Shown here piece after piece: positions 22,412 to 50,232 of a DNA stretch of 64,000 bases (positions are counted from its first letter, which is position 1; each line of letters starts with the position of its first letter). This DNA comes from a phage. The DNA lies in the sequence record NC_101837.1; one strand, given 5' to 3'. A program made the translations under genes and the position numbers. A model generated the notes under the pieces. The model was given only the letters and a program-made list of their open reading frames with translations. It did not search any database and was not told the origin of the DNA.

Positions 22412-23404
22412 ATGTTTAGGGAAGTTAGGAAACAAGAAATGGCTAAATTATCAACAGAAGAGTTTATAGAGAAGGCGAAAATCATTCACGGTTATAAATA
22501 CGATTACACGAAAACAGTGTACGTGGATTGCTATGCGAAGGTTTGCATTACCTGCCAAATCCATGGGGATTTTATGCAAGCACCTTGTAAACACTTGCAA
22601 GGTCGTGGTTGTCCTTTTTGTGCAAAACTTTCTCGTGCTGCAAAGTGTAATAAAGGTCTTAAATTTGTAGAAAGGGCCAAAGAAATCCATGGAGATAAAT
22701 ATGACTACTCTCTCGTATACTACAAGACTTGCAAAGACAGGGTAGAAATAATCTGCAACACTTGTGGAAATCACTTTACACAGACACCTGATAACCATAT
22801 AAATTTGAAAAGAGGTTGTCCAGTTTGCAAGGGGTCAAGAATCTCACAAAGTAAAACATCACCACACGAAAAGTGGGTTGAGTCCATAAGAAGTAGAAAT
22901 CCTTATGTTGAGATATTGGAAGAAATTATTGGGTGGGATAAGAAAGTCCTGTGCTGCTGTAAAGGTTGTAGCCACACATGGTTAACCGTACCAAGCAGTC
23001 TTAAGCAGGGACATGCTTGCCCTAGATGCGCTAAAACAGGATTTTTATCACACGATAACGGAAAACTCTACATTATGGTTGATGATCCAGAAGTACCTAC
23101 ATTTATGAAAATAGGGGTCAGTCATAATGAAAGTAAGCGAAGAGACCAGATACTTAAAAGTGCACAAAGATCTAGAGCTGGTATCCGCGATCTTCACATA
23201 GTGAAAACGTTGGAAGGATCAACTGAAAACATGCTGGCTGTAGAAAAATCTATGCACAAAGCCTTCAGTAAATATAAAATAAACTTCCCTGTAAAATTTG
23301 ATGGTAGTACCGAATTCTTTAACTACAGACCTGAAGTGTTCAGTATGGTAGAATCAGCGCACAGAGAGATTTGTTGTAAACATAGGACAGGTAATAACCT
23401 GTAG
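22412..23404 (+). CDS. homing-endonuclease-like protein: three zinc fingers plus T5orf172 (GIY-YIG-like) domain
   Basis: Three CxxC...H...C..C repeats, then KLYIMVDDPEVPTFMKIGVS ... GSTEFF typical of T5orf172. Confidence 0.6.
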   Translation: MFREVRKQEMAKLSTEEFIEKAKIIHGYKYDYTKTVYVDCYAKVCITCQIHGDFMQAPCKHLQGRGCPFCAKLSRAAKCNKGLKFVERAKEIHGDKYDYSLVYYKTCKDRVEIICNTCGNHFTQTPDNHINLKRGCPVCKGSRISQSKTSPHEKWVESIRSRNPYVEILEEIIGWDKKVLCCCKGCSHTWLTVPSSLKQGHACPRCAKTGFLSHDNGKLYIMVDDPEVPTFMKIGVSHNESKRRDQILKSAQRSRAGIRDLHIVKTLEGSTENMLAVEKSMHKAFSKYKINFPVKFDGSTEFFNYRPEVFSMVESAHREICCKHRTGNNL

Positions 23405-23452
23405 AGCCATATATCAACCTTTAAACATGTTATAAACTAAAGGAGGTGCAGC

Positions 23453-23569
23453 ATGTCATCAGGCATTTATAAAATTTGCAAGTGTGGTTGTCGTTGCAAT
23501 CTTCGTTGGTGCAAGGCACTGGACGATTTTATTTGGCATTGCCCTGAATGTGATACGGAGTATCTATGA
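23453..23569 (+). CDS. small Cys-rich zinc-ribbon protein (38 aa)
   Basis: AAGGAGG RBS then MSSGIYKICKCGCRCN...CPECDTEYL; ATGA overlap with nrdG start. Confidence 0.45.
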   Translation: MSSGIYKICKCGCRCNLRWCKALDDFIWHCPECDTEYL

Positions 23570-24039
23570 ACATTGTCGGATACACAGAAGTATCTTACAC
23601 AGAAGGGCCAGGTATTAGAACTGCCTTGTGGGTATCTGGGTGCCCACACGCTTGCCCTGGTTGCTTTAATCAGGCATTTTGGTCAAAAGATAAGGGGAGG
23701 GAGTTCACTGAAGAAGATTTGCAAAAAATCTTGTCAGATCTGGATAACCCGTCTGTGTGCGGTATCTCTCTGCTGGGTGGAGAACCCTTAGCATACTATA
23801 ATGAGCCAGGTATTATTAGCCTGATGGAGAAAATTAAGGAAAAATTTGGTGACAAGAAAACTATTCTTGTATATACTGGGTTCACATTTGACCATATCTC
23901 TAGTGATGTTCTTAAACTGGCTGATATCATCATTGACGGTAAGTATGTAAAAGATTTACCAACCAAGAAACCGTTCCGAGGCAGTGATAACCAAAGAATG
24001 TTTAAAAAAGTATCAGGCGGTTGGGTTCAGGTAGACTAG
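23566..24039 (+). CDS. nrdG: anaerobic RNR activating protein (radical SAM)
   Basis: CPHACPGCFN cysteine cluster and GISLLGGEPL motif. Confidence 0.8.
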   Translation: MNIVGYTEVSYTEGPGIRTALWVSGCPHACPGCFNQAFWSKDKGREFTEEDLQKILSDLDNPSVCGISLLGGEPLAYYNEPGIISLMEKIKEKFGDKKTILVYTGFTFDHISSDVLKLADIIIDGKYVKDLPTKKPFRGSDNQRMFKKVSGGWVQVD

Positions 24040-24042
24040 TTG

Positions 24043-24072
24043 TTGACAAAGCTTTGTTTAGATAGGTATAAT
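24043..24072 (+). promoter_or_regulatory. sigma70-like promoter with palindrome at -35
   Basis: TTGACA, 18-bp spacer, TATAAT; 12-bp palindrome ACAAAGCTTTGT overlaps -35. Confidence 0.65.
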
Positions 24073-24103
24073 TATCGTAAAATGAAAGCAGAGGAGGTGC
24101 CAA

Positions 24104-24217
24104 ATGGCTAAAAAAGCCTTGAAGAAGGCGTACAAGAAAGAGATTGCGCTTGAGCTTAAGAAAAAACACAAGCGTGAAAAGAAACATCATGAAGATGAAG
24201 AGGGGGTGCAACAGTGA
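24104..24217 (+). CDS. small lysine-rich peptide (37 aa)
   Basis: GAGGAGG RBS, MAKKALKKAYKKEIALELKKKHKREKKHHEDEEGVQQ. Confidence 0.4.
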   Translation: MAKKALKKAYKKEIALELKKKHKREKKHHEDEEGVQQ

Positions 24218-24564
24218 CACAAGAACGTATCGATTTGGCTAATAAGTTTGTAGACCTCATTTTGCCACGGTTAGTTACTCAACATGCAGATGCTATTTCT
24301 ACTAATCTTGATGGCTTACGCCTAATGCTGAATCGCACAGATGACCCTCGTATTCGGGCTGATTTAGAAGCCTCTGCCAACAAACTGGAAAAGTTCTTGC
24401 AAGTAGACACGCAAGAAGCCTTGCACAAGATTATGGTGGAAGGTTTCTCTAAAGAATTTACCATTAAAGAGCTTAAGGAGCTGATCCACCAAGAAGAGAT
24501 GAATATCCGAGTTCAGGCTGTTGCAAGCAGCATGGAAGCGGCTATTGAAAAACTGTTGCAGTAA
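24214..24564 (+). CDS. hypothetical protein (116 aa)
   Basis: GTG start overlapping upstream stop. Confidence 0.45.
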   Translation: MTQERIDLANKFVDLILPRLVTQHADAISTNLDGLRLMLNRTDDPRIRADLEASANKLEKFLQVDTQEALHKIMVEGFSKEFTIKELKELIHQEEMNIRVQAVASSMEAAIEKLLQ

Positions 24565-24602
24565 AAGTACTTGGCACATCTCAATCTGAAAGGAGTCCCA
24601 AC

Positions 24603-25391
24603 ATGGGTCGAGCTAAAGAAACAAAACGCATGCGTGATGAAGCTAGAGAGGCTCGCAAATCTGATCGCCTGCGTAAGGCTGCTGAGAAATTTGCTGACGA
24701 AAGAGAGCACACCGCTCCAGCTCTCCGACCAATGAATAAGAAGCAGCAAAAGTATCTTGATTATCTAGGGTCACGTAAGATTATTATTGTAAACGGCGTG
24801 TTTGGATCCGGTAAGACATTTATGGCATCTGCATATGCAGGTGATCTTCTGCGTAAGAACGAGATTGATAAGATCATTGTTGCACGTCCTTACGTCCAGA
24901 CAGGAAAGACTTCAGGATTTAAACCCGGAAATGCAATGCAGAAACTGTGGCCCTATCTTCGAAGCATGATGGACACGATTTGTCGTCGTGTTGGCAAAGG
25001 TGCTTTTGCCGCAATGCTGGGAGACGGTCAGAACAGTCGTATCGAGATTTGTGAAGTTGAAAGCATTCGTGGTCGTAGTTTCGATGAGCGATGCTTTGTC
25101 CTGATTGACGAGGCACAGCAAACTAACCCTGAAGAAATGTTGTCAATTATCACAAGGATCTCTGATCAAGCCACCCTTGTAATTATGGGTGATAATAGCC
25201 AACGTGACATCCCTGGTAAATCTGGCCTTGCATGGGTGACGGATTTCTTTACTCGTCATCCAGATCCTGAGGTTGGAATGATCAGCTTTGATAGTCCAGA
25301 CGATGTCGTTCGTTCCGGGTTGGGTCGTCAAATCGCACTCAATCTTATTGAGGATCGTGCAAATCATATTTGGACCCCTGTTTCCGAGTAA
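24603..25391 (+). CDS. phoH: PhoH-like ATPase
   Basis: Walker A VNGVFGSGKTFMA, Walker B FVLIDEAQ. Confidence 0.8.
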   Translation: MGRAKETKRMRDEAREARKSDRLRKAAEKFADEREHTAPALRPMNKKQQKYLDYLGSRKIIIVNGVFGSGKTFMASAYAGDLLRKNEIDKIIVARPYVQTGKTSGFKPGNAMQKLWPYLRSMMDTICRRVGKGAFAAMLGDGQNSRIEICEVESIRGRSFDERCFVLIDEAQQTNPEEMLSIITRISDQATLVIMGDNSQRDIPGKSGLAWVTDFFTRHPDPEVGMISFDSPDDVVRSGLGRQIALNLIEDRANHIWTPVSE

Positions 25392-25396
25392 TACAG

Positions 25397-25420
25397 AAGG
25401 GTGGTTATTCCACCCTTAAA
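25397..25420 (+). terminator. putative terminator hairpin
   Basis: GGGTGG/CCACCC stem with TTATT loop after phoH stop. Confidence 0.5.
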
Positions 25421-25435
25421 TATCTAAAACAGTTG

Positions 25436-25464
25436 TTGACAAACAGGTAAGCTTTAGATATTAT
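25436..25464 (+). promoter_or_regulatory. sigma70-like promoter
   Basis: TTGACA, 17 bp, TATTAT. Confidence 0.6.
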
Positions 25465-25494
25465 TATCGGACAAGACAAGGAGAAGGAGATAGT

Positions 25495-25806
25495 ATGGCT
25501 ACAATACAAGAGAGACTGAATAAAATATACTGCCTGTTTGTCTATAACGGCGAGACAATTTTGGCAAATAAAGGATCCAAGAATGTGTGGATCAAGGACA
25601 GCGGTGGTAATATAATCAACTTAGCGTTGCTACGTGAGCGCCGACACAGATTCTTTATCGAGTCTCGAATTATTGAAAGCAGCACTTGCTACAGAACAGG
25701 CGATAAAGTAATTGTTGACAATGATACGTGGTATGTGGTAGATTGGCAATCATTGAGTTGTGATGCTTCTGACAATCGTAAGTACTCCATAGTGATTGCT
25801 AAATAA
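25495..25806 (+). CDS. hypothetical protein (103 aa)
   Basis: ORF after promoter with GGAGAAGGAGA RBS. Confidence 0.45.
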   Translation: MATIQERLNKIYCLFVYNGETILANKGSKNVWIKDSGGNIINLALLRERRHRFFIESRIIESSTCYRTGDKVIVDNDTWYVVDWQSLSCDASDNRKYSIVIAK

Positions 25807-25866
25807 AGGTAAATGTGAATCAGGTTTAAATAAATAGCTTTCAACTTCCAATATTAAGGATTTCTC

Positions 25867-26916
25867 ATGAATTTAACACCTCGCAGCACCATGGTACACG
25901 GCATGAAAGAAAAACAGAACGGTTTCGAACCTATGAGTAATAAAATGTTTGGTATGCCGGGCGGTATCATGGAAACATACAGCTACCCAACACCTGTTGT
26001 TGACCACGTTCTTTATATCGACGATTTGGAGGACCTGCAGGATCATATGTCTCGTCTGCAGACGATCCGTATGGCTCAGCCGGAAGAAAGCATTCGTGTG
26101 ATCATCAATAGCCCTGGTGGTTGCGTGCACATTGCAATGGCCTATCTGCAGGCATTCCGCGAGTCTCAGGCAAGCGTTGTTGCACATGCTGAAGGGATGT
26201 GCTGCTCTGCTGGAACAATCTTATGGCTTGGTTGCAAAGAACGTACTGTGGCTCCGGACACAGAATTTATGTTCCACTACTATCAAGGTGGCACTTATGG
26301 TAACGGTGTTAACATGAATACTCAGGTCAGCTACTGGAAAAAACGTTTTGAACACCTGATCGAAAAATACTACGGTGGGGTGCTGACAGAAGATGAGATC
26401 GCATCCATCACAGCTGGTGGCGAAGTGTGGTTGGACGGAGAAGAGTTGGCAGCACGCACTGGAGCTATTATTCTGGATGAAGGCAACATACAACGCATCC
26501 AGAACGGACAAAAACCGAAAAAGCTTCTGGCAAAAGGTGATGAAGAAGGCGTGTTAGGTGAAGCAGGTCTTCCGGAGATTCATCAGTGCACATCTTTAGA
26601 TGAGTTAGTTCATGCTGTTGAATCTGCAAAAGCGGGTGGTTCGAAAGGTGATGTTCACACTGTGTTCCTGAATCTGCAGATGGAAAGTGGCGAGACCGTC
26701 CGAATTGCCCTGGGTGAGATTACTTCAGAAGATCTGCAGAGATTCTCTGTCGTTGAACTTCAGGATATTCTGTCTCAATTGAAGACTACTCTGAACGGCG
26801 GTGAAGAGGTTAAGGTGAAAGATAAGACTCGCAAGCGTCTTGTGGACAATATTATTAAAACAGCAAAAGAGCTCAATGAAAAAATCCTTGGTGCAGGAAT
26901 TGTCGAAGAAGCTTAA
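25867..26916 (+). CDS. ClpP-family serine peptidase with C-terminal extension
   Basis: INSPGG, catalytic-Ser region AEGMCCSAGTILWLG, His region MFHYYQGGTYG; about 150-aa acidic extension. Confidence 0.65.
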   Translation: MNLTPRSTMVHGMKEKQNGFEPMSNKMFGMPGGIMETYSYPTPVVDHVLYIDDLEDLQDHMSRLQTIRMAQPEESIRVIINSPGGCVHIAMAYLQAFRESQASVVAHAEGMCCSAGTILWLGCKERTVAPDTEFMFHYYQGGTYGNGVNMNTQVSYWKKRFEHLIEKYYGGVLTEDEIASITAGGEVWLDGEELAARTGAIILDEGNIQRIQNGQKPKKLLAKGDEEGVLGEAGLPEIHQCTSLDELVHAVESAKAGGSKGDVHTVFLNLQMESGETVRIALGEITSEDLQRFSVVELQDILSQLKTTLNGGEEVKVKDKTRKRLVDNIIKTAKELNEKILGAGIVEEA

Positions 26917-26927
26917 ACATTAATTCT

Positions 26928-26952
26928 AAAGCCCTCTTCGGAGGGCTTTTAT
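26928..26952 (+). terminator. intrinsic terminator
   Basis: AAAGCCCTC-TTCG-GAGGGCTTT then T run. Confidence 0.6.
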
Positions 26953-26967
26953 GATCTGGAGATTTGC

Positions 26968-27501
26968 ATGACTTGTGCTAGAAAACCTGATGAACAACGT
27001 AACGCCTACGATGAGTATGTGACACCGGAATGGTGTGCAGAAGGGCTGTATGACCTTATTCCGTTCCCAGAAGACTGGACCTACTTAGAGCCTTGCAGGA
27101 ATAGTGCCTCAGGTGTGTTCTACTCCCGTATGCCGTTAGGATCTGCATGGGGAGAAATCCAAGAAGGTGTTGACTATCTGAATACAGAATACAACCATGT
27201 TGACTGTATTATCACCAACCCGCCGTACAGCCTGGCTCGTGAGTTTGTGAACAAGGCGTTGAAAGATGCCGACGTAGTTATTATGCTTTTGCGTCTTAAT
27301 TTTCTGGAAAGCAAAGCCAGATTTGAATGGTGGCTTGATAATGCACCTACTACTGTGATCACAATATCTAAGCGTCCATCATTTCAATCAAACGGCAGAA
27401 CTGACGGGCAAGCATATGCATATTTTGTGTGGGATAAGAAAAACCGTTTAGACTTGCCGCCGTTTATGTGGTTGGCACCCCCAGAGGTAGACCTGAAATG
27501 A
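26968..27501 (+). CDS. small DNA N6-adenine methyltransferase (phage Dam-like)
   Basis: IITNPPYS motif; 177 aa. Confidence 0.5.
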   Translation: MTCARKPDEQRNAYDEYVTPEWCAEGLYDLIPFPEDWTYLEPCRNSASGVFYSRMPLGSAWGEIQEGVDYLNTEYNHVDCIITNPPYSLAREFVNKALKDADVVIMLLRLNFLESKARFEWWLDNAPTTVITISKRPSFQSNGRTDGQAYAYFVWDKKNRLDLPPFMWLAPPEVDLK

Positions 27502-27782
27502 AAATGAGTGCTAAGGACAAATTACACCAGCTAGCGCTAAAACGCCCTGTAACGCTCCCTGACGAGCTTAACTCCATTTATGATGCGATTGTAGGGGAGA
27601 TACAAAATAAAGCGTTAGCAGGCTTTCTGGGGTGCGGATTTTCGATAAATCTACCCTCGCATCTCTCAGATTACTTCCCGCACATTGTTGGAGATTTAAG
27701 GGCAGGAGGTCTGCAGGTAGATGTTGTTGGCATCTCCCCAGAGAAAAATAATACGGTTGCCTACTTGACAGTAACCTGGTAG
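27498..27782 (+). CDS. hypothetical protein
   Basis: Internal ATG of track ORF 27468..27782. Confidence 0.4.
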   Translation: MKMSAKDKLHQLALKRPVTLPDELNSIYDAIVGEIQNKALAGFLGCGFSINLPSHLSDYFPHIVGDLRAGGLQVDVVGISPEKNNTVAYLTVTW

Positions 27783-27818
27783 TTGTGTATTGTTGTTTTC
27801 AACAAGAGGGGGTCATTT

Positions 27819-28058
27819 ATGTACAAGTCATTTTCAATCTACTCAAGACAGGCGAAACACTACACAGAGATCCTGATCACTCAGAAAAAATCTGTGGAAG
27901 GTGAGTGGGAATATCACCATAAAATGTTGCGTCCAGACTGGGTTTTTGATAGACTTATTGCTATGATCCCTCTCGGAGAAGTATACCCTCTGACAGCCCA
28001 TCGCGATGCTTGGGATTTAATTGATTACATAGATTCATTTAAGGAGCCTAGATTATGA
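27819..28058 (+). CDS. hypothetical protein
   Basis: ATG after GAGGGGG RBS. Confidence 0.4.
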   Translation: MYKSFSIYSRQAKHYTEILITQKKSVEGEWEYHHKMLRPDWVFDRLIAMIPLGEVYPLTAHRDAWDLIDYIDSFKEPRL

Positions 28059-28453
28059 AGATTGAGATTACTAAAGAAGGTAAGAAAGTGTCCGGCAACT
28101 ATGCAACAGTAATTCGGGATTTAATGTTTGAAGCCACCAAGATCGGTACATCTAAAGTTGGTCAAACTGTTAGTGTGAAAAGTAATATCTCCACAGGAGA
28201 GAAGGTATTCATTGTGGTCAAAGGGCAGGATCCCGTGGAAGGAACAGTGGGCCGAGGTGGCTACCTGTGCATTTCTGAAGAGCCGCGTATGTTAGTGGCT
28301 GACGCTACTATGGGTGGGAAACGTGTGTGCGAGGCGGATGAGGTAATGATTATCCAACCTGTTGATCCAGATGACCCAGCAACTTGGGTGGTAGGAAATG
28401 AAATCTTCTCTTTAGAAGAGTTATCCTTCCCAGCACCGCGCTCTGTTCAGTAA
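28055..28453 (+). CDS. hypothetical protein (132 aa)
   Basis: Tiled ORF. Confidence 0.45.
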   Translation: MKIEITKEGKKVSGNYATVIRDLMFEATKIGTSKVGQTVSVKSNISTGEKVFIVVKGQDPVEGTVGRGGYLCISEEPRMLVADATMGGKRVCEADEVMIIQPVDPDDPATWVVGNEIFSLEELSFPAPRSVQ

Positions 28454-28490
28454 TAATTTATCTTACCAGGGACGGTAGGTAGGAGGTAGC

Positions 28491-28724
28491 ATGAAAGTTA
28501 AATTTCTTACAGATTTAGGGTACCCTTCCTTGGTTGACTGTGTTGGTAAAATTGTGGAAGCAAAACGGCTATCTGCAAACGAGAATGTTGTCCTGGTTAA
28601 AGGGAAGGATTTACTAGCTGCAGGTGCAGAGTCTGGCAGGATCTCTCCTGATTATATGTATTACCTATCTTTAAGTAATCTGCCAGAGCGAGGCGGTAAA
28701 GGCCTTGAAGTTGTGGAGGAGTGA
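28491..28724 (+). CDS. small acidic protein, MKVK...VVEE family
   Basis: MKVKFL start, VKGKDLLAAGAESG motif, ends EVVEE; paralogous to 32053, 32267, 34139. Confidence 0.5.
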   Translation: MKVKFLTDLGYPSLVDCVGKIVEAKRLSANENVVLVKGKDLLAAGAESGRISPDYMYYLSLSNLPERGGKGLEVVEE

Positions 28725-28729
28725 CAGGT

Positions 28730-29254
28730 ATGCTTCTGATTAACTGGGAAGACCTCTATGGGGACAAAGACCCTGTTGCGTTTGTTGATCGTAGGTGGAG
28801 ATACACTGAAGAACAACTGGCGGCAAAAAATCTAACTGCAAAACGCAGAAAGATCATCCAGTGCAAGTACAAATACGCACAGTTTGCTGCAAAAGTGTCT
28901 CCACAAATCGAGAGCTTTGTGCTTAAATTGTATGACGAGTACCTCAAATCCAAATTGGATTTTGTGCAGGTGTACCGTGCACAGGTACGACCAGATACCA
29001 ACATGTGTAGATGGAAGGTTGTTTGTGAAGGTAAAGATTTGCCGCTCAGCTTGACAATTGAGTGGCGTTATGGGTATCATGAGTGTGGTCTGTATGATAT
29101 TTGGGATGTCATTGTAGATCCTGCTAAGCATCTGAACACAGAGGAGCTGGAATATATCAATAAGGTTATTCTCGATATGTTTTTCAGCTACACACATGAA
29201 AACTCTGAGAAAGAACGGGATAATTTTCTTGACACCCTCAGCGACCATTTGTAG
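28730..29254 (+). CDS. hypothetical protein
   Basis: ATG 28730 downstream of GGAGG; track start GTG 28721. Confidence 0.45.
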   Translation: MLLINWEDLYGDKDPVAFVDRRWRYTEEQLAAKNLTAKRRKIIQCKYKYAQFAAKVSPQIESFVLKLYDEYLKSKLDFVQVYRAQVRPDTNMCRWKVVCEGKDLPLSLTIEWRYGYHECGLYDIWDVIVDPAKHLNTEELEYINKVILDMFFSYTHENSEKERDNFLDTLSDHL

Positions 29255-29284
29255 TATACAATTTAACCTACAAAGGGAGGACCA

Positions 29285-29512
29285 ATGAGTATAAATGTTG
29301 TGCTAATAGGTTACCTGGTAATGTCCGTTATAACAGCGGTATTCTTGACAGGTGTATGCATCGTGTCCAGACGAAGGGTGAAGTTTGATGATTTTATCAC
29401 CATCATCACTGCTGCACCTTTTTGGCCTGTTGTTATCTTCATCGTAATAATGTGCCTAGTTGATTACTACAAGAATATCAGGAAGGAGAGTAGGGATGGA
29501 GACCGCACCTAA
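29285..29512 (+). CDS. small membrane protein (2 predicted TM helices)
   Basis: Two hydrophobic segments, basic loop. Confidence 0.45.
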   Translation: MSINVVLIGYLVMSVITAVFLTGVCIVSRRRVKFDDFITIITAAPFWPVVIFIVIMCLVDYYKNIRKESRDGDRT

Positions 29513-29648
29513 AACTATCTATACTGTTCTTAAAGAGATTGCGTTCTACGCAGATCTTAGCCAGGCACCTTTATGGGAAAAGAGCATGTATTTAAAATGG
29601 TGCGTTAATTTAGGGAGACCTTCCAGTGTTTCAAGCCATGTTTATTGA
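29496..29648 (+). CDS. hypothetical protein
   Basis: ATG after AGGAAGGAG. Confidence 0.35.
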   Translation: METAPKTIYTVLKEIAFYADLSQAPLWEKSMYLKWCVNLGRPSSVSSHVY

Positions 29649-29731
29649 GATGCTATCTGGGATATTGTTACTGGTAGCCATCTTAGGTGGTGCAGTTCTG
29701 ATGTATAACTATCTTGAAAAAGGAGACAGCA

Positions 29732-29917
29732 ATGGTAAAAAATAAATCTTTAGAGCAGGCTGAAAACCTTCTCCACGAGCTGGTAAAGGAGTGGAAAGTT
29801 GAATACTCAGATTTTAATGCACGAGAGGGTGAAGATTATTGGCCTACGGAGCGCTCAGAGGGCGAATGGTATCAAGATTTTATAGAGTGGTTATATCAGA
29901 CGTGCGATGAGGGGTGA
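29732..29917 (+). CDS. hypothetical protein
   Basis: Internal ATG of track ORF 29714..29917. Confidence 0.4.
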   Translation: MVKNKSLEQAENLLHELVKEWKVEYSDFNAREGEDYWPTERSEGEWYQDFIEWLYQTCDEG

Positions 29918-30384
29918 CGATGTTTGTTAAATATGTAAAAACGTGCCTCAACAGTCTTGGCAGAGAGCATTGGTACACCTTGCTTGAAAAAGGGGAAATT
30001 TTAACAAAATCTGGAAAGATAACTTTGATACCTCTTGATAGTAAAGGTAAAGACCCGTCACGACTTGTTATAGATGATTACGTTACAGGTGTGACGTTCG
30101 AGGTCTCTGTGGAGAGGTTAATACGCAGAGCTGGCGGCCCTTATGACCGAAGAGAGTATGTTTTCGATTCCGTTACAGAGATGGGGGAGCATCCGTCTTT
30201 AATGTTCAGGATGGTAATCAGAGATATGAGGTCATCTATAGATAGGATCGTAAAGGACATTAAGGAACCTTTTAGAGTAAAAGTTAAGAAGTTTTTCGAT
30301 TCTAAGATTAACATACTCGCCGTTGCACTAGGTGTAGTTCAACTTCTGTTAATTTTGCACTATTTTGAACTACTATTTAAGTAG
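29914..30384 (+). CDS. hypothetical protein (C-terminal hydrophobic helix)
   Basis: ATGA coupling. Confidence 0.45.
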   Translation: MTMFVKYVKTCLNSLGREHWYTLLEKGEILTKSGKITLIPLDSKGKDPSRLVIDDYVTGVTFEVSVERLIRRAGGPYDRREYVFDSVTEMGEHPSLMFRMVIRDMRSSIDRIVKDIKEPFRVKVKKFFDSKINILAVALGVVQLLLILHYFELLFK

Positions 30385-30446
30385 TAGTTGAGATATGGCA
30401 CAAAGGATGTGCCATAGTGAAATAAACTAAGAAAGAGGTAGAGAGA

Positions 30447-30794
30447 ATGCCAAAGATTAAAACGTTATTACTGTGGGTAGCTGTTTTAGCTTTTATAGGG
30501 TACTGGACTTGGGAAACTGAATTAAAAGATATCGGATATACCAGTCTTGAGAGCAAGGCGTGCATTGGCATAACCGATGCGTTCAGGCAAAATGCTATGG
30601 ATCATGAATGTGTTGATGCAGATATAGATGAGAAACTGTCTAAGGACAAAGATTTTTACCATGGGCATGCTTTACTTGATAGTGGTGACACTGTAGAGTT
30701 CTGGTCGTGGTTTCGTGAAGATGGAACAATAAAAACAGCAGTAAAGATCTCTAACAAAGAGTTAATGCTGTTGCAGCAAAAGGAGGCTCAATGA
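30447..30794 (+). CDS. hypothetical protein with N-terminal TM/signal
   Basis: LLWVAVLAFIGYW hydrophobic N-terminus. Confidence 0.45.
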   Translation: MPKIKTLLLWVAVLAFIGYWTWETELKDIGYTSLESKACIGITDAFRQNAMDHECVDADIDEKLSKDKDFYHGHALLDSGDTVEFWSWFREDGTIKTAVKISNKELMLLQQKEAQ

Positions 30795-31078
30795 TCTGGA
30801 TATCCTATGCTGATGGTACCATGCTGTATACTGCAGGTACCAGATATGAAGTTCAGGAGAACGATAAAAAATTTATCGTAAAAACATTTGACAAGGACGA
30901 CAACCTTTTGCTAGAATTGACTTACAAAGTTGGAGAGGTATCCAATATCCAGTTGGATTGTGGTCATAAAGATAATCCACTCAAAAAACCTGGAGTAGGT
31001 AAGGCTTCAGAAGAACGTCTGTCTCGTATTGCAGAAAGCGTTTCTCCCCAAAAATCTAAGAAGAGGACTAGAAAATGA
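30791..31078 (+). CDS. hypothetical protein
   Basis: Tiled ORF, ATGA overlap. Confidence 0.4.
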   Translation: MIWISYADGTMLYTAGTRYEVQENDKKFIVKTFDKDDNLLLELTYKVGEVSNIQLDCGHKDNPLKKPGVGKASEERLSRIAESVSPQKSKKRTRK

Positions 31079-31269
31079 AAAACTTACGTTTTAACACTTA
31101 TTACTACAACACATTGAATGATTTGTATTATATTGTTCGAAGTAAAAGTCCTGAAACAGTCCTATTCTGCCGCGAACCTTTCAAAGGGGAGGAAGTAGAG
31201 TCTGAGATGAATGTTAGCCAGATCACCTCTTTGTTGCTCTCAGGCGCAATGGAAGAAGCAATATTCTAA
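31075..31269 (+). CDS. hypothetical protein
   Basis: Tiled ORF. Confidence 0.4.
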   Translation: MKNLRFNTYYYNTLNDLYYIVRSKSPETVLFCREPFKGEEVESEMNVSQITSLLLSGAMEEAIF

Positions 31270-31287
31270 ACCAGGCAGGAGGGTTTT

Positions 31288-31476
31288 ATGAAGCACTATT
31301 GCCTGTCTGGTAGAATGGGTGCAGATTGTGATTGGGTTTTCTTAAAACTTGTCAGCATTCGAGAGTTCATCCCAGAGGAAGAGCAAGAAAGCGAGCTGAT
31401 GTCATGGATCAACCATTACGGTAACACTTTTCGGCATGTTAAGGTAGAAGAGTTGCCAAGCGAGGCTGAATTATGA
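31288..31476 (+). CDS. hypothetical protein
   Basis: RBS GGAGGG upstream. Confidence 0.4.
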   Translation: MKHYCLSGRMGADCDWVFLKLVSIREFIPEEEQESELMSWINHYGNTFRHVKVEELPSEAEL

Positions 31477-31769
31477 AACTTTTTGAGTGGTTTAAAAAGT
31501 TTAAATATAAAGCTGTAGCCATCGTGCCGTGGTCCATTCAGTGGGTTGATGAAGGTGGTCTACCGATACCTGGTGACAAAGATACTGGGTACTGGATTAT
31601 GATGGAGAACGGGTTTGGAAAGCGAAAGTATACGTGCACAAACTCTACTCGATCTGCACTTAATAGAGTGCCTGGTTACAAACTTATGGTTGTGTGGAAA
31701 ATGTCAGGCGTGCCTCCAGCCAATGCTCAATTTCTTACTGACAATCCGACCACGGTAGAGGGAGATTGA
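31473..31769 (+). CDS. hypothetical protein
   Basis: Tiled ORF. Confidence 0.4.
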   Translation: MKLFEWFKKFKYKAVAIVPWSIQWVDEGGLPIPGDKDTGYWIMMENGFGKRKYTCTNSTRSALNRVPGYKLMVVWKMSGVPPANAQFLTDNPTTVEGD

Positions 31770-31771
31770 TA

Positions 31772-32053
31772 ATGAAAAAGATTAACAGTAGTGAAGTAGA
31801 GTTTAAACTTGTCGGAAAAGGCACTTACTGGGAAGTTCGTCAAAAGGTATATTTGTTCGGTCTTATTCCCTACTGGTCTAAATTCTACTGGGGAGCTAAC
31901 GAGTTGGGAAGATACGCCACCAAATCAATGGCACTTATTGGTATAGCAGAGTACATTGCAGCCCGAGACAGGGTTGGAACCACTTATTACTACACTGCTG
32001 ACGATATTCGTAACAGTGTTTACGTCCCACAACCACCTGATGGAGACCGTTGA
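31772..32053 (+). CDS. hypothetical protein
   Basis: Tiled ORF. Confidence 0.4.
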   Translation: MKKINSSEVEFKLVGKGTYWEVRQKVYLFGLIPYWSKFYWGANELGRYATKSMALIGIAEYIAARDRVGTTYYYTADDIRNSVYVPQPPDGDR

Positions 32054-32277
32054 TGAAAGTTAAAGTTTTAGATTCAAGCTTCTATATTGGTCAGGAGCCT
32101 TTAGTAGGAAAAGTGTTTACTGCTGTCCCTAACGAAGATTACCCTGACCTTTTAAAAATAAAAGGAGCAGATCTTATTGCCGCTGGTGCATCTCAGGAAT
32201 GCTTTGACAGTCAGTGGACCTATAACTTTGCCCTAGGTGAGGATGTAGAGGTAGTGGAGGACGATCATGAAGGTTAA
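32053..32277 (+). CDS. small acidic protein, MKVK...VVEE family
   Basis: MKVKVLDSSFYIGQ, IKGADLIAAGASQE, ends VEVVEDD. Confidence 0.5.
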   Translation: MKVKVLDSSFYIGQEPLVGKVFTAVPNEDYPDLLKIKGADLIAAGASQECFDSQWTYNFALGEDVEVVEDDHEG

Positions 32278-32521
32278 AATTCTTGATTCTAACGTCTACT
32301 TGGGACAATCCTTCCTGAATGGAAAGGTCGTTCCTGCGGTATACTTTGAAGGGTTGCCGTGGGATGATCCTGTGCGGCAACATCACAGTTATGTAGGCCA
32401 CAACGTGGTGTTTATCTTGGGATCAGACCTGATCACCGCTGGTGCACCTGAATATTATTTCGGGGAAGAGTCCTACTATGCCTTTGGGGTAGGGTCAGAT
32501 GCAGATATTGTAGAGCTGTGA
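32267..32521 (+). CDS. small acidic protein, MKVK...VVEE family
   Basis: MKVKILDSNVYLGQ, GSDLITAGAPE, ends DIVEL; tandem with 32053. Confidence 0.5.
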   Translation: MKVKILDSNVYLGQSFLNGKVVPAVYFEGLPWDDPVRQHHSYVGHNVVFILGSDLITAGAPEYYFGEESYYAFGVGSDADIVEL

Positions 32522-32533
32522 TGGGTAACCGTT

Positions 32534-32932
32534 GTGAAAAATAAACTGTTTAAAGTTACAATGAAAATTCGCGGGGCTTGGAGCGTAAAGCAAGGGCGTA
32601 TCCCAGAATTTGAGAAAGACTTCTACGTAGTCTCCACCTCGGAGGAGGCTGCATGCTGGCAGGCTGGCTATGCATATGCAAGAACCTGGTACGAAGGATA
32701 CCAGACTGGTGGCTATGACGGAGAAATTATCAGCAAGGGTGTAGAAGAAATTAATGTGTTGACAAGTGAAAAAGTTTTTGTTATAGTGCATCCAGATTCC
32801 AGAGTGAAGCATTACTGGAATGCCAGAACAAAAACTTGGACACCGTTTGCAGATTCTGCTACACCACTTTTAAACCAGAAAGCTCTTGACTCTGTCCCGA
32901 GCTATGGGGTTGTTGAAGAAAAGCTAAACTGA
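32534..32932 (+). CDS. hypothetical protein, paralog of 34739..35134
   Basis: Shares HP(D/H)S..K.YYWN...K.WTP motif with 34739 gene. Confidence 0.45.
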   Translation: MKNKLFKVTMKIRGAWSVKQGRIPEFEKDFYVVSTSEEAACWQAGYAYARTWYEGYQTGGYDGEIISKGVEEINVLTSEKVFVIVHPDSRVKHYWNARTKTWTPFADSATPLLNQKALDSVPSYGVVEEKLN

Positions 32933-32949
32933 AACGGTGAGGTACTAAC

Positions 32950-33240
32950 ATGATGGATTTAGTTCTAGACACTGATAACACCGGAGCGTTTAAAAAGGAT
33001 GGTGTAACAAGCGTTGACCAATCATTCCCTGCCAAGATTGACTCAAAATGGACCTACAAGTTTGATGGAGAGATCTTCGCAAATGATGAGAAGGTTGTAG
33101 ATGCTGCAGCCATTTTGAACGCTCTAGGGTACGACCCTGTGAATTCTTTGATCAAGGATCCTGTTGAGTTTGCAGAGTATGTTCGAAAAATGGCAGATCT
33201 TGCTGTGGATATTTTAAAAACTATCGACAACAATCTGTAA
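32950..33240 (+). CDS. hypothetical protein
   Basis: Tiled ORF. Confidence 0.45.
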   Translation: MMDLVLDTDNTGAFKKDGVTSVDQSFPAKIDSKWTYKFDGEIFANDEKVVDAAAILNALGYDPVNSLIKDPVEFAEYVRKMADLAVDILKTIDNNL

Positions 33241-33246
33241 AAACTG

Positions 33247-33275
33247 TTGACACAACGCTTCAGATTTAGTATCAT
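33247..33275 (+). promoter_or_regulatory. sigma70-like promoter followed by leader hairpin
   Basis: TTGACA, 17 bp, TATCAT; hairpin AGAGGG/CCCTCT at about 33285-33303. Confidence 0.55.
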
Positions 33276-33322
33276 TGTTTTCAAAGAGGGTTTGGTTCCC
33301 TCTTCTTTAAAAGGAACACGTT

Positions 33323-33640
33323 ATGCAAATTGAAATCACTGGCAACGTAGAAATCACTGAAGGTATGGTGTCTTTCATTTCCCACAAAATGTCTAAGCTG
33401 GAGCGTTTGCATCCCTCTGCCAACTATGCACGTGTGAGTGTAAAAGTTGAAAATGATCACCAGGAAGTTATGGCGTTCATTTTTGACAATTCTGGAAAAG
33501 AAGTTATTGCCAAAGCTAAAGGCAGTGATGCTTACGAGGCAACTGACCGTATGGTAGATGTTGCAGCACGTCAACTGGCTAAATGCGGTGGAAAGAGAGG
33601 TAAGGGGAAAGGCAAAGTAAAGATTGACTTTAGAGAATGA
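33323..33640 (+). CDS. ribosome hibernation promoting factor / RaiA (YfiA) homolog
   Basis: MQIEITGNVEITEGM...KLERL...VSVKVEN...AKAKGSDAYEATDRMVDVAARQL is collinear with bacterial HPF/RaiA. Confidence 0.7.
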   Translation: MQIEITGNVEITEGMVSFISHKMSKLERLHPSANYARVSVKVENDHQEVMAFIFDNSGKEVIAKAKGSDAYEATDRMVDVAARQLAKCGGKRGKGKGKVKIDFRE

Positions 33641-33649
33641 GGTGCTACA

Positions 33650-33751
33650 ATGGGTGTGATCAAGAAATTAGTCCCAAATGTAGAGATTGCATGCTTTGAA
33701 ATTATGTTTGCAATCGCAGTTGTAGTTAATGTGTTAGGTTACGGCTATTAA
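33650..33751 (+). CDS. small hydrophobic peptide (33 aa)
   Basis: GAGGTG RBS, MGVIKKLVPNVEIACFEIMFAIAVVVNVLGYGY. Confidence 0.3.
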   Translation: MGVIKKLVPNVEIACFEIMFAIAVVVNVLGYGY

Positions 33752-33777
33752 TATCAAATAATTGAGGAGACCTCTAA

Positions 33778-34047
33778 ATGAAAATTAAATTATTCAAAAC
33801 TGAGCTGGCAGACAAAAACTGTGGACTGGTTGAAGGTATGATTGTCGAAGCACAACCAGTTGACTATATGAAGGTGGTTCGTGATGCCCTGGGTGAAGGT
33901 TTTGATCTGATGGAGCCAGCTCTGCGAGAAGATGTTATCGAGATGGCTAAAAAGCACACACCTGAAGGCATGGTGGTGTTTGTTGCACCGGGTAACGGAG
34001 AAGAGTTGATTGTAACTCCGGATGTGTATGAGATTGTAGAGGAATAA
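33778..34047 (+). CDS. small acidic protein, MK(I/V)K family
   Basis: MKIKLFK start, ends YEIVEE. Confidence 0.45.
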   Translation: MKIKLFKTELADKNCGLVEGMIVEAQPVDYMKVVRDALGEGFDLMEPALREDVIEMAKKHTPEGMVVFVAPGNGEELIVTPDVYEIVEE

Positions 34048-34138
34048 TCCTGCTTGGATTAGCATACTTCCTCGATAAGGAAGGTTTGTAATTATTTGTG
34101 GGAAAGGAATCCCAATCTCTTACCAGAGGTGATACTAT

Positions 34139-34402
34139 ATGATTGTTTATTTTAAAACTTCAGGTGGATACCCTGATTCTCAAAGCTTGATCGGAAAAAC
34201 GTGCACAGCATACTCACCTCTTGATGAGGAGGTAGGCGATATTCTACGAAATATGTATCGGATTGATCCTCAAGAAGCTTTTGATCAAAACCTTGTATTT
34301 GTCAAGGGCTCAGACATGAAGTCTTTGGGAGCATTCCCTGAAGCAGATGATGATGCCGTTTATTCGTTCATGACCCCTTTTGAAGCTATGGTTGTTGGGT
34401 GA
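34139..34402 (+). CDS. small acidic protein (family-related)
   Basis: VKGSDMKSLGAFPE resembles KG.DL..AGA motif. Confidence 0.45.
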   Translation: MIVYFKTSGGYPDSQSLIGKTCTAYSPLDEEVGDILRNMYRIDPQEAFDQNLVFVKGSDMKSLGAFPEADDDAVYSFMTPFEAMVVG

Positions 34403-34406
34403 TAAT

Positions 34407-34739
34407 ATGAAAGTACGCTTTATTGGTGAAACAATTCCTGTGCATCTCCGGTCGCCTGAGGATTCTGCAGATCTTGCATCTCAAAAGGCGAGAGGTTATG
34501 ATAAGAAAGTAACCTCAACTGATGTAGTGCTTGAGGCTACTAGTCTACCTGACCCTGCTGCATTCTTTAATCATTATGGGTACTATTTCAGCAATCTGAT
34601 GAATATCGGTGAGCTTGTGTTTATTAGTGGTGGAGAAATTGTTAGCAAGCTTGGCGGCGATCCGGATATCTTTCATGAAACCTGTCCTTTTGCATTTGTA
34701 GTAGGTTCAGATGTGGAAGTTATTGAGGAGGTGCGGTAA
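34407..34739 (+). CDS. small acidic protein
   Basis: MKVRFIG start, ends VEVIEE. Confidence 0.45.
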   Translation: MKVRFIGETIPVHLRSPEDSADLASQKARGYDKKVTSTDVVLEATSLPDPAAFFNHYGYYFSNLMNIGELVFISGGEIVSKLGGDPDIFHETCPFAFVVGSDVEVIEEVR

Positions 34740-35134
34740 TGGTAAGCCTATACCGTGTTGAGTATAGCTCAGATACTGTATACAACGTAAGAAGCAAAGA
34801 TCGCAGCGACAGAGTGCAAGAAATGTATGTTCTTGCCGACAGTCCGTTATCTGCAGCGTTCAAGGCAGGGGCTCTTGCATCTCGTTGGAAATTTGAAGGT
34901 GGATCTTTCTATGAAGAAACCCTTGAAGATTCTGTTGTTATTTCTTCTGTAGAGGTTTCAGATGACTACGAAGGGAAAAAGTTCGTAATGCGGCACCCAC
35001 ACAGCAACATTGCGTACTACTGGGATGTTCTGAACAACGAGTGGACCCCAGATCTTCAGAAGGCTACTGTGCTAACACCGTTTTTGGCAGATAAGTTCCC
35101 ACCAGAAGGTAATTTATCCGCACTGTTTCAGTAA
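34739..35134 (+). CDS. hypothetical protein, paralog of 32534..32932
   Basis: RHPHSNIAYYWDVLNNEWTP motif shared with 32534 gene. Confidence 0.45.
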   Translation: MVSLYRVEYSSDTVYNVRSKDRSDRVQEMYVLADSPLSAAFKAGALASRWKFEGGSFYEETLEDSVVISSVEVSDDYEGKKFVMRHPHSNIAYYWDVLNNEWTPDLQKATVLTPFLADKFPPEGNLSALFQ

Positions 35135-35152
35135 TTTTCTTGCACACAGGTG

Positions 35153-35181
35153 TTGACAACGCCAACCCTGTGTGAAATAAT
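35153..35181 (+). promoter_or_regulatory. sigma70-like promoter with -35 inside inverted repeat
   Basis: TTGACA, 17 bp, AATAAT; 8-bp inverted repeat CACACAGG/CCTGTGTG flanks the -35. Confidence 0.5.
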
Positions 35182-35213
35182 ACCTTCATCTTAACAAGAC
35201 AGGGGACCGATTG

Positions 35214-35471
35214 ATGAAGATTAAATTGAAAAACCTTGAAACGGCAGAGATTCAGGACGGTGTTGATTTCCGTTCTAAAGATGGTGACATCTTAGAGGTA
35301 AATATTCCAACCTACGAGCTGATTAAAGGTTTTGGCAACGTTCCGGAAGAGGATATTACAGAAATTCTTATGATGTTGATTCTTGACGGAACTGTGTTTG
35401 TAGGTGAAGGTGAGAACGCTATTGCAATCCCAGGCCATTTTTATGAAGTAGTTGACGAAGAGGTGCTGTAA
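35214..35471 (+). CDS. small acidic protein
   Basis: MKIKLKNL start, ends VVDEEVL. Confidence 0.45.
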   Translation: MKIKLKNLETAEIQDGVDFRSKDGDILEVNIPTYELIKGFGNVPEEDITEILMMLILDGTVFVGEGENAIAIPGHFYEVVDEEVL

Positions 35472-35822
35472 ATGAAAGTAGAAATTACCGGTTTTGATGT
35501 GAATGTGGTTCCGGAAGATATTTTAGCTAAACTTCCAGAAGGTTTTGGTAACGGCGTTGTGGTGGATGCTGTTCCTCCTACTAAAGACATTCTGCTGCAG
35601 TATGGTGTAGCAGAGGAAGATGTCGATAAAGTTCTTACAATGATGGCAATCGATCGTGTTGTCGTTGTTAAAGGTCTCGATAATTTTGAGAGTGATCCAC
35701 TGATTATTCGTGGAGATGACTACAAAATCATCGATAATGAAGGCCAAGAGTTCTATGAGCCTTGTGCAGAAGATATTCTTAACTTATTACTGGAAGCAGG
35801 CACCGAAGAGGAGGACGAATAA
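35472..35822 (+). CDS. small acidic protein
   Basis: MKVEITG start, acidic C-terminus. Confidence 0.45.
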   Translation: MKVEITGFDVNVVPEDILAKLPEGFGNGVVVDAVPPTKDILLQYGVAEEDVDKVLTMMAIDRVVVVKGLDNFESDPLIIRGDDYKIIDNEGQEFYEPCAEDILNLLLEAGTEEEDE

Positions 35823-36151
35823 TGAAGATTGACCCGTTACTGAAGGCTCGTGCAGAAAAAGCGTACACCATTAAGTTGACCAACTTGGTTCCTACTTGTC
35901 ATCCGGATGTAGGTTGGCCCGAAGGTTTGGTGGAGGGAACTGTAACAGCTGCATACCTTCCTAACATCAAATACCTCATGGAAATCTTGGAGCTGGATGA
36001 GGAAACGGCAGAAGAGTTCCAGTTGGACATGAAACAAAGTGGGACTCTGGTTATTCACGGGTGGTACAATACTAAAGATGCAGAAGACCCTCTGGTAACT
36101 TCTAATCTGGCATATGAAATCTTAGGGCCTTTGAACCTGGAGGAAGACTAA
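35822..36151 (+). CDS. small acidic protein
   Basis: ATGA coupling, acidic. Confidence 0.45.
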   Translation: MKIDPLLKARAEKAYTIKLTNLVPTCHPDVGWPEGLVEGTVTAAYLPNIKYLMEILELDEETAEEFQLDMKQSGTLVIHGWYNTKDAEDPLVTSNLAYEILGPLNLEED

Positions 36152-37532: not shown

Positions 37533-37537
37533 TGACA

Positions 37538-37564
37538 AAGAGGGGGGCTTGGGCCCCTCTTTTT
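37538..37564 (+). terminator. intrinsic terminator
   Basis: GC-rich hairpin AGAGGGG...CCCCTCT then TTTTT. Confidence 0.65.
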
Positions 37565-39133: not shown

Positions 39134-39260
39134 CACACAATTAGCTGCCCGGCTAAAGTGCTGGAAGCACCTATAACACATCTTTCAACTAAATTTCCTA
39201 CCACCACAATCACTTACCTCCCACACATGACTGTTTGCTTGTTTAGTGAGCAGTCATGCC

Positions 39261-42036: not shown

Positions 42037-42179
42037 GGTGTTTTTACCTCTTAGTTAATTTTCTTACAACTTCCCTTCAAAAAAGAATATAGCAAAACTG
42101 CCGATCCCTGTCAACCAGGGATAGCATAATTTTTATGTGATCAAGGGGCTTTAAGCCCCTGACCGTGCACCTTGTTGTA

Positions 42180-43924: not shown

Positions 43925-44379
43925 TTGCCAACCTCACCCGATACCGTTGGAAGACAAGATCACATTAGCCATGGTTGCAATCAGGCCAATACCCAGGGCA
44001 ATAACCAGGATCACCGCATCAATTAATTTCTGTTTCATTTTGTTTTCCTCTTCTTGTTCCAGGTGGCGGACCATTCCACCGCCTTATGTATTATGCTTTG
44101 TAAGATGGTTGTTTGTTTTCAAACTATTTTAACGATAATCATCGTACGCTTTATTAACCTGGCGAATATAACATTCAAAAGCCAGATCAATAGATTTATA
44201 TTCACGGATATACTCACCATAGGAAACCACATACATTTCTATAGCTTCCTCATATGCGAGGAGAATAGAATCCAAGCCTACGATCTCAGTCTTTGCAATA
44301 ATAGCCATGATTTTTATCCTCTTTGTGGTTGGTGGGGCTTGCCCCTTTGATTTATATACTACAGTCTTATATGGTCATG

Positions 44380-45849: not shown

Positions 45850-45872
45850 TGATTATTTTAACAGGGTTTAAA

Positions 45873-45916
45873 TTTACTTTATTGATGGCCCTGGAGTCAA
45901 GGCCATCTAAAAATAA
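45873..45916 (-). repeat. 44-bp repeated intergenic hairpin element, copy A
   Basis: TTTACTTTATTGATGGCCCTGGAGTCAAGGCCATCTAAAAATAA; GATGGCC/GGCCATC stem; 1 mismatch vs copies B and C. Confidence 0.6.
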
Positions 45917-45919
45917 ATT

Positions 45920-48131: not shown

Positions 48132-48188
48132 GATATTTTCTCCTATTTTCTTTGTTAGTGGCGGGAAGTTTTCCCGCCTGTGTGTTTA

Positions 48189-48216
48189 AGTATACTTATC
48201 GAGATTTACTTGTCAA
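48189..48216 (-). promoter_or_regulatory. sigma70-like promoter (leftward)
   Basis: Reverse strand TTGACA, 16 bp, TATACT; followed by hairpin GGCGGGA/TCCCGCC (48160-48178), RBS and ATG 48131. Confidence 0.5.
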
Positions 48217-49248: not shown

Positions 49249-49322
49249 GTACTTTCTCCTTTCATGGTGTTAATAAATTATCTTTATAGATGGCCCTGCA
49301 ACCAGGACCACCGAAAAAATAA

Positions 49323-49568
49323 CTATTTCACAATGCCTACAAAACAGATCCCGCCTTCACCTATATAAGCAATATCGGTCACTTTATAACTTGTCAAGAT
49401 CTGCTTATTTAGTTCATTAATAAAATCGGTCATTGCGTTGGTGTAGTTGTCTTCCGTGTCTAAGGCATAATCCCAGGTGTACACCTTTTTACGTCCGAAG
49501 CCTTTTACCATGATACGGGCGCTTTTGGTGTTGGTAGGGGCATAATATTTGGTGATTAGTGCTGCCAT
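49323..49568 (-). CDS. hypothetical protein
   Basis: Tiled ORF. Confidence 0.45.
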   Translation of the reverse strand: MAALITKYYAPTNTKSARIMVKGFGRKKVYTWDYALDTEDNYTNAMTDFINELNKQILTSYKVTDIAYIGEGGICFVGIVK

Positions 49569-49611
49569 GGTTTTAACTCCTATGCATTAGTTCAGTGTTA
49601 ACAGTATAAAG

Positions 49612-49655
49612 TTTACTTTATTGATGGCCCTGGTGTCAAGGCCATCTAAAAATAA
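49612..49655 (-). repeat. 44-bp repeated intergenic hairpin element, copy B
   Basis: TTTACTTTATTGATGGCCCTGGTGTCAAGGCCATCTAAAAATAA, identical to copy C. Confidence 0.6.
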
Positions 49656-49657
49656 GC

Positions 49658-49999: not shown

Positions 50000-50050
50000 G
50001 GTGTTTTTCTCCTTTTGTGTGTTCTGGGAAGTTTTCCCGTTTATGTGCTT

Positions 50051-50078
50051 ATTATATCGATTTAAGTTAGCTTGTCAA
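50051..50078 (-). promoter_or_regulatory. sigma70-like promoter (leftward)
   Basis: Reverse strand TTGACA, 16 bp, TATAAT; hairpin GGGAA-GTTT-TCCC downstream then RBS. Confidence 0.6.
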
Positions 50079-50198: not shown

Positions 50199-50232
50199 CT
50201 TTAAGCCTCCTTTTCCGCTCAACTGTGGTTAG

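Follow-up and report, generated by a model that had tools for sequence, protein, structure and literature searches.

In the T4-type phages RB49, phi1, nt-1 and PST, promoter-early stem-loops (PeSLs) unite a sigma70 early promoter with a stem-loop amid small orphan genes and serve as recombination boundaries (Arbiol et al. 2010, PMC2839356; Comeau et al. 2014, PMC4122927). In the coliphage rV5, 33 sigma70-type promoters have been predicted (Kropinski et al. 2013, PMC3606486), and neither that paper nor the rV5 record NC_011041 mentions dyad symmetry at two of them, P118 and P150. Here, we analysed the equivalents of P118 and P150 in 64,000 nucleotides (nt) of phage DNA (NC_101837.1; this whole stretch is called the window, and coordinates refer to it unless a locus is named), for which an earlier note had proposed a recurring design with the -35 element placed inside dyad symmetry. 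On balance, we lean towards the reading that both sites are ordinary sigma70 promoters, that the palindrome at P118 arose by chance, and that P150 is overlapped by a genuine stem-loop with which it forms a PeSL-type cassette rather than an operator.

Judged by its sequence, the window is the genome of a Vequintavirus, that is, of an rV5-like coliphage; the stretch 23000-36000 shares 95-99% identity with over 100 such genomes, and 34740-35480 matches phage Murica at 100% identity. We curated 29 intergenic sigma70-like promoters within the window, the set behind all counts out of 29, and compared the folds of their -15 to +30 windows, as kcal/mol and z scores, with those of random 45-nt windows. 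The P118 site was compared in 14 relatives and the P150 site in 17, including IMG/VR and metagenome loci, with the P118 set reaching down to 85% identity; scans of IMG/VR and metagenomes for further relatives gained just a few loci.

P118 (24043-24072, + strand) matches the consensus at 12/12 positions, with TTGACA at 24043-24048, an 18-nt spacer and TATAAT at 24067-24072, and begins 4 nt past the nrdG stop codon (24037-24039), the next ATG being at 24104. P150 (35153-35181, + strand) lies within the 79 nt that separate the gene 149 stop codon (35132-35134) from the gene 150 ATG (35214), and matches 11/12 consensus positions plus a TGn element, with TTGACA at 35153-35158, a 17-nt spacer, TG at 35173-35174 and AATAAT at 35176-35181, the extended -10 TG compensating for the imperfect -10. 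The orthologous positions in NC_011041 are annotated 'Sigma70-type promoter; P118' and 'Sigma70-type promoter; P150', and the rV5 promoters, which are likewise predictions and not mapped start sites, share positions, hexamers and flanking genes (nrdG-ORF118 and ORF149-ORF150) with those of the window in DNA that is 90-96% identical, leaving no essential difference. Both hexamers of P118 were without variation in all 14 relatives, with a varying spacer and varying flanks, and those of P150 were without variation in all 17. Because the hexamers are invariant while the flanks vary, the prediction that P118 and P150 are ordinary strong sigma70-type promoters, as already annotated in rV5, is well supported. 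Unmodified host sigma70 holoenzyme would be expected to fire both early in infection, each promoter presumably driving the transcription of a series of small genes without assigned function.

The earlier note had described a perfect 12-bp palindrome over the -35 at 24043, and this description is exact: ACAAAGCTTTGT occupies 24046-24057, takes in the final 3 nt of the -35 plus 9 spacer nt, and includes a HindIII site. Nevertheless, the palindrome looks like a product of chance in a spacer that is free to drift, because the density of such palindromes is as expected, the symmetry is broken in relatives that retain the promoter, and the segment does not fold. Perfect palindromes 12 bp or longer numbered 21 in the window versus 15.6 expected, and at this density chance would place one on 0.17 of 29 -35 hexamers and on 0.39 of 29 promoter cores. 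In FV3 and VB-EcoM-WM (WM) the palindrome has become ACAAAGTCTTGT, and it is ACAAATCCCTGT in the IMG/VR locus L002 (85% identical), in each case with no compensating change and with the -35 and -10 intact, and single-strand structure was absent from the P118 segment (z = +0.34). No sequence resembling ACAAAGCTTTGT was found elsewhere in the window, even allowing 2 mismatches.

The 8-bp inverted repeat reported around the -35 of P150 is likewise present exactly as described (35143-35174, + strand). Its arms, CACACAGG at 35143-35150 and CCTGTGTG at 35167-35174, enclose an inner stem of GTTG (35152-35155) and CAAC (35163-35166) with a 7-nt loop, giving a 12-bp stem in which a bulged U separates the 8 outer pairs from GTTG/CAAC. 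Promoter signals are thereby built into the repeat, with the TTG of the -35 in the inner stem and the TGTG of the right arm forming the TRTGn extended -10. The predicted fold (-17.6 kcal/mol, z = -4.05) ranks with the most stable 0.4% of random 45-nt windows. The window has 48 exact inverted repeats whose arms span 8 nt or more and whose loops do not exceed 20 nt, among them the one at P150, and about 0.09 of 29 -35 hexamers would be expected inside such a loop by chance; as an exact repeat, P150 is thus only marginally beyond chance, and as a fold it is clearly unusual. The hairpin was present in 17/17 relatives, and its left arm is nearly fixed, unlike an UP element, beside 5 highly variable nt directly 5' of it, a pattern that in these sequences would speak in favour of constraint. 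We consider the inverted repeat to be a genuine stem-loop-forming sequence kept across the genus, which is real but unproven as a functional element. Since the 32-nt hairpin, the 29-nt promoter core and the 5' untranslated region (5'UTR) all share 79 nt, and the hairpin starts 8 nt past the gene 149 stop codon, hairpin and promoter have bases in common.

Other interpretations of the P150 sequence fared poorly. An intrinsic (Rho-independent) terminator would resemble P150 in its GC-containing stem-loop just past a stop codon, but P150, like two further promoter hairpins described below (P164 and the D1 family), has no U-tract on either strand, and a terminator scan reported no site there, which led us to reject this candidate. 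An antisense promoter using the - strand TATTAT at 35176-35181 was rejected as no -35 could be read at a suitable distance, and a CRP-type site (TGTGA) as no second half-site could be read. The 8-mer CACACAGG is itself over-represented, with 10 copies on both strands (4367, 17544, 35143, 35167, 37906, 38807, 48177, 51953, 60078 and 61213) versus ~2 expected and 0/100 shuffles reaching 10. Its contexts are mixed and mostly coding, two copies lying just past a -10 (48184 and 51960, - strand), and this heterogeneity led us to discard the over-representation as an operator pattern; within the window, CACACAGG forms an inverted repeat at P150 only and takes no constant position in other promoters.

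Among described systems, the PeSL composite of T4-type phages appears, by comparison of layouts, to be the closest to P150. As in a PeSL, a near-consensus sigma70 promoter and a stable stem-loop share a short gap (79 nt at P150) amid small genes of unknown function, and stem-loops adjacent to and upstream of the promoter occur elsewhere in the window, at 25436, 39261 and P164. The gene behind P150 also behaves as a module. In phage phiWec189, gene 150 alone has been swapped for an allele at 50-64% nucleotide and 52% amino-acid identity (35183-35450; L006:16944-17225), with sharp breakpoints immediately 3' of the P150 -10 on the left and at the gene end on the right, between flanks that are 96-100% identical; a replacement beginning just 3' of the promoter is how PeSL boundaries behave (PMC2839356). 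The layouts differ in that the stem-loop is nested over the -35 at P150, P164 and D1, spanning -10 to +21 from the -35 start at P150, in that the P150 sequence is unique, not repeated, and free of a U-tract (the D1 family does show the repeat feature), and in the phage group, which is the Vequintavirinae and not the T4-type phages, any terminator activity at P150 being only putative. P150 and its stem-loop would thus make up a compact PeSL-type cassette that exerts no control over access to the -35, the stem-loop, as one of many in the gaps between genes of this phage, acting instead on read-through RNA from upstream promoters, possibly as a 3'-end or processing hairpin or as a weak attenuator.

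Gene 150 itself (35214-35471, + strand, from the list of open reading frames (ORFs)) is the first gene behind P150 and encodes an 85-residue homologue of the rV5 protein with no Pfam family, found only inside the genus at 52-100% amino-acid identity. Proteins 149 and 150 had no counterparts outside Vequintavirus, their occurrence being limited to 118 Vequintavirus records, and this restriction makes a deep comparison of the P150 region impossible.

To place P150 among the promoters of the window, the whole set has to be considered. As a group, the 29 promoter windows showed no more structure than did random windows (Mann-Whitney p = 0.89) or TTGACA sites outside promoters, and at 23/29 promoters the -35 was free of inverted repeats with arms of 6 nt or longer. 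Four promoter cores, those of P150, the rV5 P164 equivalent and two copies of the D1 repeat, ranked in the best 1% of random windows. Independent cores overlapped by unusually stable GC-rich stem-loops number four in the window, and the hairpin-over-core promoters are unrelated in sequence. At the P164 equivalent, which is annotated in rV5, the hairpin ATCCCTG-gttga-CAGGGAT (42104-42122, - strand; -16.8 kcal/mol, z = -3.65) covers the -35 at 42109-42114 and includes one covarying pair over 10 genomes (U-A in 6, C-G in 3 and another combination in 1).

The D1 family corresponds to the 44-bp hairpin elements of the earlier note, which do exist, as a 49-nt repeat in four copies, all on the - strand. 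It is restricted to the genus Vequintavirus, with about 3 copies per genome over 120 records. The stem GATGGCC...GGCCATC (in the hairpin GATGGCC-ttgacaccag-GGCCATC) is invariant, the loops vary, and the sixth base of the '-35' differs among relatives; a flanking T-run and AATAAAG are able to pair as a lower stem. Three of the four copies resemble TTGAC(A/T)-N18-TAAAYT promoters and the fourth retains the hairpin alone. The copies at 49610-49658 (-21.1 kcal/mol, z = -5.9) and 50231-50279 read TTGACA-N18-TAAACT with the -35 at the hairpin apex, the copy at 45871-45919, for which orthologues were compared, consists of a T-rich flank, the hairpin GATGGCCTTGACTCCAGGGCCATC and then AATAAAGTAAATT, and in the copy at 49276-49324 (-17.8 kcal/mol) CTGGTT replaces the -35 while the stem is retained via G-U pairs on the - (sense) strand. 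Because stems are invariant, loops and the '-35' base vary, and the 49276 copy has no -35, the hairpin and not the promoter is the conserved object in this family, and it probably acts as RNA.

The same question was put to a second genus with the distant relative Cronobacter phage CR3 (Certrevirus), assembled from three loci, in which 27 sigma70-like sites were found, 26 of them testable over the whole core. A hairpin over the -35 in the best 1% of random windows was found at 0/27 CR3 sites. Over the whole core, hairpins ranking with the best 5% of random windows were present at 8/26 sites (1.3 expected) and those ranking with the best 10% at 12/26, several of these sites being paralogous copies, so that the counts are not independent. 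The hairpins lie within the 17-18-bp spacer (TTGACAccGGGGCCgataGGCCCCATAAT; GGGGCCGAAAGGCCCC), as in GGGGCC-GAAA-GGCCCC abutting CATAAT, or around the -10 (ATGGGGCCtgTATTATGGCCCCAT), at L029:41578-41606, L029:41959-41987, L029:33282-33311, L029:17142-17170 and L027:42314-42342, all on the - strand; the literature we searched contained no description of such a spacer or -10 layout. Across the two genera, Vequintavirinae do tend to nest GC-rich stem-loops in their early promoters, not specifically at the -35. The recurring design proposed by the earlier note is therefore upheld in part: a -35 does sit atop a stable hairpin at P150, P164 and D1, and strong core hairpins are commoner than in random windows (4/29 in the best 1%), but the P118 palindrome is chance-like, no motif is shared, most promoters have no dyad, the group is unremarkable, the register is variable, and CR3 has none over the -35. 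This pattern fits intergenic stem-loops squeezed onto promoters and not control via a dyad-embedded -35.

Several observations weigh against P150 being a PeSL-type cassette with a working hairpin. No covariation was found at its stem over 9 distinct sequences from the relatives, with 9/12 pairs invariant, two showing one-sided C-to-T changes (in FV3 and L015, giving G-U on the + strand) and one broken (in phiWec189), and because compensatory change is absent, selection for pairing at P150 is unproven. The P150 spacer is conserved no more than those of several dyad-free promoters, such as the one at 32759, and its conservation was for this reason rejected as a sign of function. The stem runs into AAATAATACC on the + strand and CAAGAAAATT on the - strand, without a U-tract either way, and the element is single-copy, unlike classical PeSLs, which recur as motifs and in which an AT-rich block follows the stem-loop. 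The four independent hairpin-over-core promoters are in excess of the random-window expectation, and given this excess, function may be tied to the promoter itself. In addition, the literature searched held no Vequintavirus transcript or 5'-end data, and we infer the start sites and any RNA role. Much of this would also be expected if the symmetry at both sites were coincidental, the P150 repeat being functionless and persisting through the conserved promoter it overlaps, whose extended -35 (TGTTGACA) and TRTGn are partly self-complementary. Consistent with coincidence, the three natural changes at P150 are transitions confined to one side of a pair and show no consistent preference for either strand (two favour the + strand and one the - strand, making G-U compatibility uninformative as to the strand of action), the surrounding region has about one hairpin of similar energy per 800 nt, genes included, and chance would be expected to yield 0.09-0.6 cases per 29 promoters, which is not negligible. 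Set against this are the fold of P150, at z = -4 among the most stable of random windows, the nearly fixed left arm, which is not UP-like, beside variable nucleotides, and the comparable hairpins on three other independent cores of the window, one with a covarying pair, and on many in CR3. Taking these points together, we regard coincidence as a possible though doubtful account, and favour a genuine stem-loop overlapping the promoter.

Dyad symmetry over a -35 is the classical operator layout. The earlier note had accordingly raised operator binding, in which a dimeric phage or host regulator would bind the dyads and shut the promoters by occluding the -35, and P150 does resemble lambda OR/OL, LexA boxes and the P22 Mnt and Arc operators in having a dyad over the -35 or spacer of a sigma70 promoter, with arms conserved within the genus and a protein annotated in rV5 as a transcriptional regulator encoded nearby. 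However, a Pfam search with seven neighbouring proteins, including the homologue of this regulator, returned no family and no recognisable DNA-binding domain, and no cognate protein was identified. The known operators recur at co-regulated promoters, which neither motif does here; FV3, WM and L002 have lost the P118 palindrome; the P150 half-sites are 24 bp apart from centre to centre (16 bp between arms) and their arms change on one side only in FV3, L015 and phiWec189; and the hairpin-over-core promoters are unrelated in sequence. Neither recurrence nor conservation nor the spacing of the half-sites supports the operator proposal, and we consider it very improbable indeed. Structure-dependent control, also raised in the earlier note, would have a subset of Vequintavirinae early promoters built deliberately in GC-rich hairpins, which in rV5-like phages would cover the -35 and in Certrevirus would lie in the spacer or surround the -10. 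A hairpin or cruciform extruded from the DNA, for example in supercoiled, newly injected genomes or on passage of upstream transcription, or a structure in nascent read-through RNA, would hide or expose the -35 or -10 and thereby gate sigma70 or couple upstream transcription to an internal promoter. The excess of very stable core hairpins in two genera, the covarying pair over the P164 -35 and the invariant D1 stems with their variable loops are in keeping with such control. But the register is not fixed, running from upstream through the -35, spacer and -10 to the 5'UTR, the majority of promoters have no such hairpin, and the D1 copy at 49276 keeps its stem through sense-strand G-U pairs without a -35, pointing to a role in RNA rather than in DNA or the promoter. 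Loops of 16 nt and 10 nt, as found here, make poor cruciforms. The variable register and the 49276 copy speak against control through a -35 dyad, and we judge the gating of promoters by their hairpins highly unlikely; were it true, it would constitute a layer of structure-dependent early-gene control not described for phage sigma70 promoters.

The favoured reading, in which ordinary promoters carry a chance palindrome at P118 and a genuine stem-loop at P150, matters little as it stands, the promoters being known and the idea of the palindrome as an operator failing against the relatives. The point worth keeping is that Vequintavirinae appear to nest stable stem-loops in or over early promoters at a variable register, a layout resembling, in more compact form, the PeSL cassettes to which modular gene shuffling among T4-like phages has been attributed. 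Nested stem-loops might also explain where the boundaries of gene replacement fall, and, if borne out by transcript mapping, the reading would aid the annotation of therapy-relevant phages and the engineering of gene cassettes.

Strong stem-loops occur near the promoters of the window at every register, upstream, over the -35, over the -10 and in the 5'UTR, with 12/29 promoters having none. The hairpin GATGGGGCC-taatataat-GGCCCTATC (59684-59710, - strand), with 9 bp, -17.3 kcal/mol and a rank in the best 1.2% of random windows, holds the -10 TATAAT in its loop and belongs to a perfect-consensus promoter whose -35 starts at 59721, a layout as in CR3. Stem-loops immediately upstream, in the adjacent arrangement of PeSLs, are found at 25397-25417, 39226-39258 and 42144-42160, before the promoters at 25436, 39261 and 42114, respectively; the stem before the last of these (P164) is GGGGC...GCCCC, followed by an AT-rich block. 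The 5'UTR hairpins, at ~+5 to +30 of - strand early promoters, take the form GGCGGGAA-nnn-TTCCCGCC (repeat family D4) or GGGGCAAGCCCC (48160-48178 and 50694-50712, also 50014-50051 and 44330-44345), and may act as stabilisers of the mRNA 5' end. A separate perfect 12-bp palindrome, TAAGTATACTTA at 48187-48198, has at its centre the -10 (TATACT) of the promoter at 48216 on the - strand. True terminators with a U-tract are also present in the window, for example at 26928-26949 and 37537-37562, and Rfam gave zero matches across the whole window.

The genes around these promoters fall into two blocks. At ~23-40 kb, the + strand carries nrdD, nrdG, phoH, clpP and a methyltransferase gene (a nucleotide-metabolism set), followed by dozens of small hypothetical genes, and at ~42-62 kb small genes lie on the - strand. 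The first gene behind P118 is a 37-residue ORF (24104-24217, + strand) preceded by AGGAGG, homologous to rV5 ORF118 and with orthologous coding sequences in rV5 and phage WalterGehring; a 116-residue ORF and then phoH come after it. Upstream of nrdG, a 330-residue ORF (22412-23404) is the counterpart of a 'putative homing endonuclease' of WalterGehring, and such insertions around nrdD/nrdG vary among relatives, many records aligning only from query position 357 on. Among the relatives, 18 or 19 GenBank records of the MG0656xx series (for example L016, L017, L019 and L020) are titled 'UNVERIFIED: Campylobacter phage' and are 95-100% identical to E. coli Vequintavirus here, which makes the Campylobacter host label doubtful. 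Lastly, 52165-52350 contains three imperfect 47-nt direct repeats (AAAATCCATTTCTGAAAACGAAAAATCGATTTCG...) spaced by 65-74 nt in seemingly non-coding DNA.

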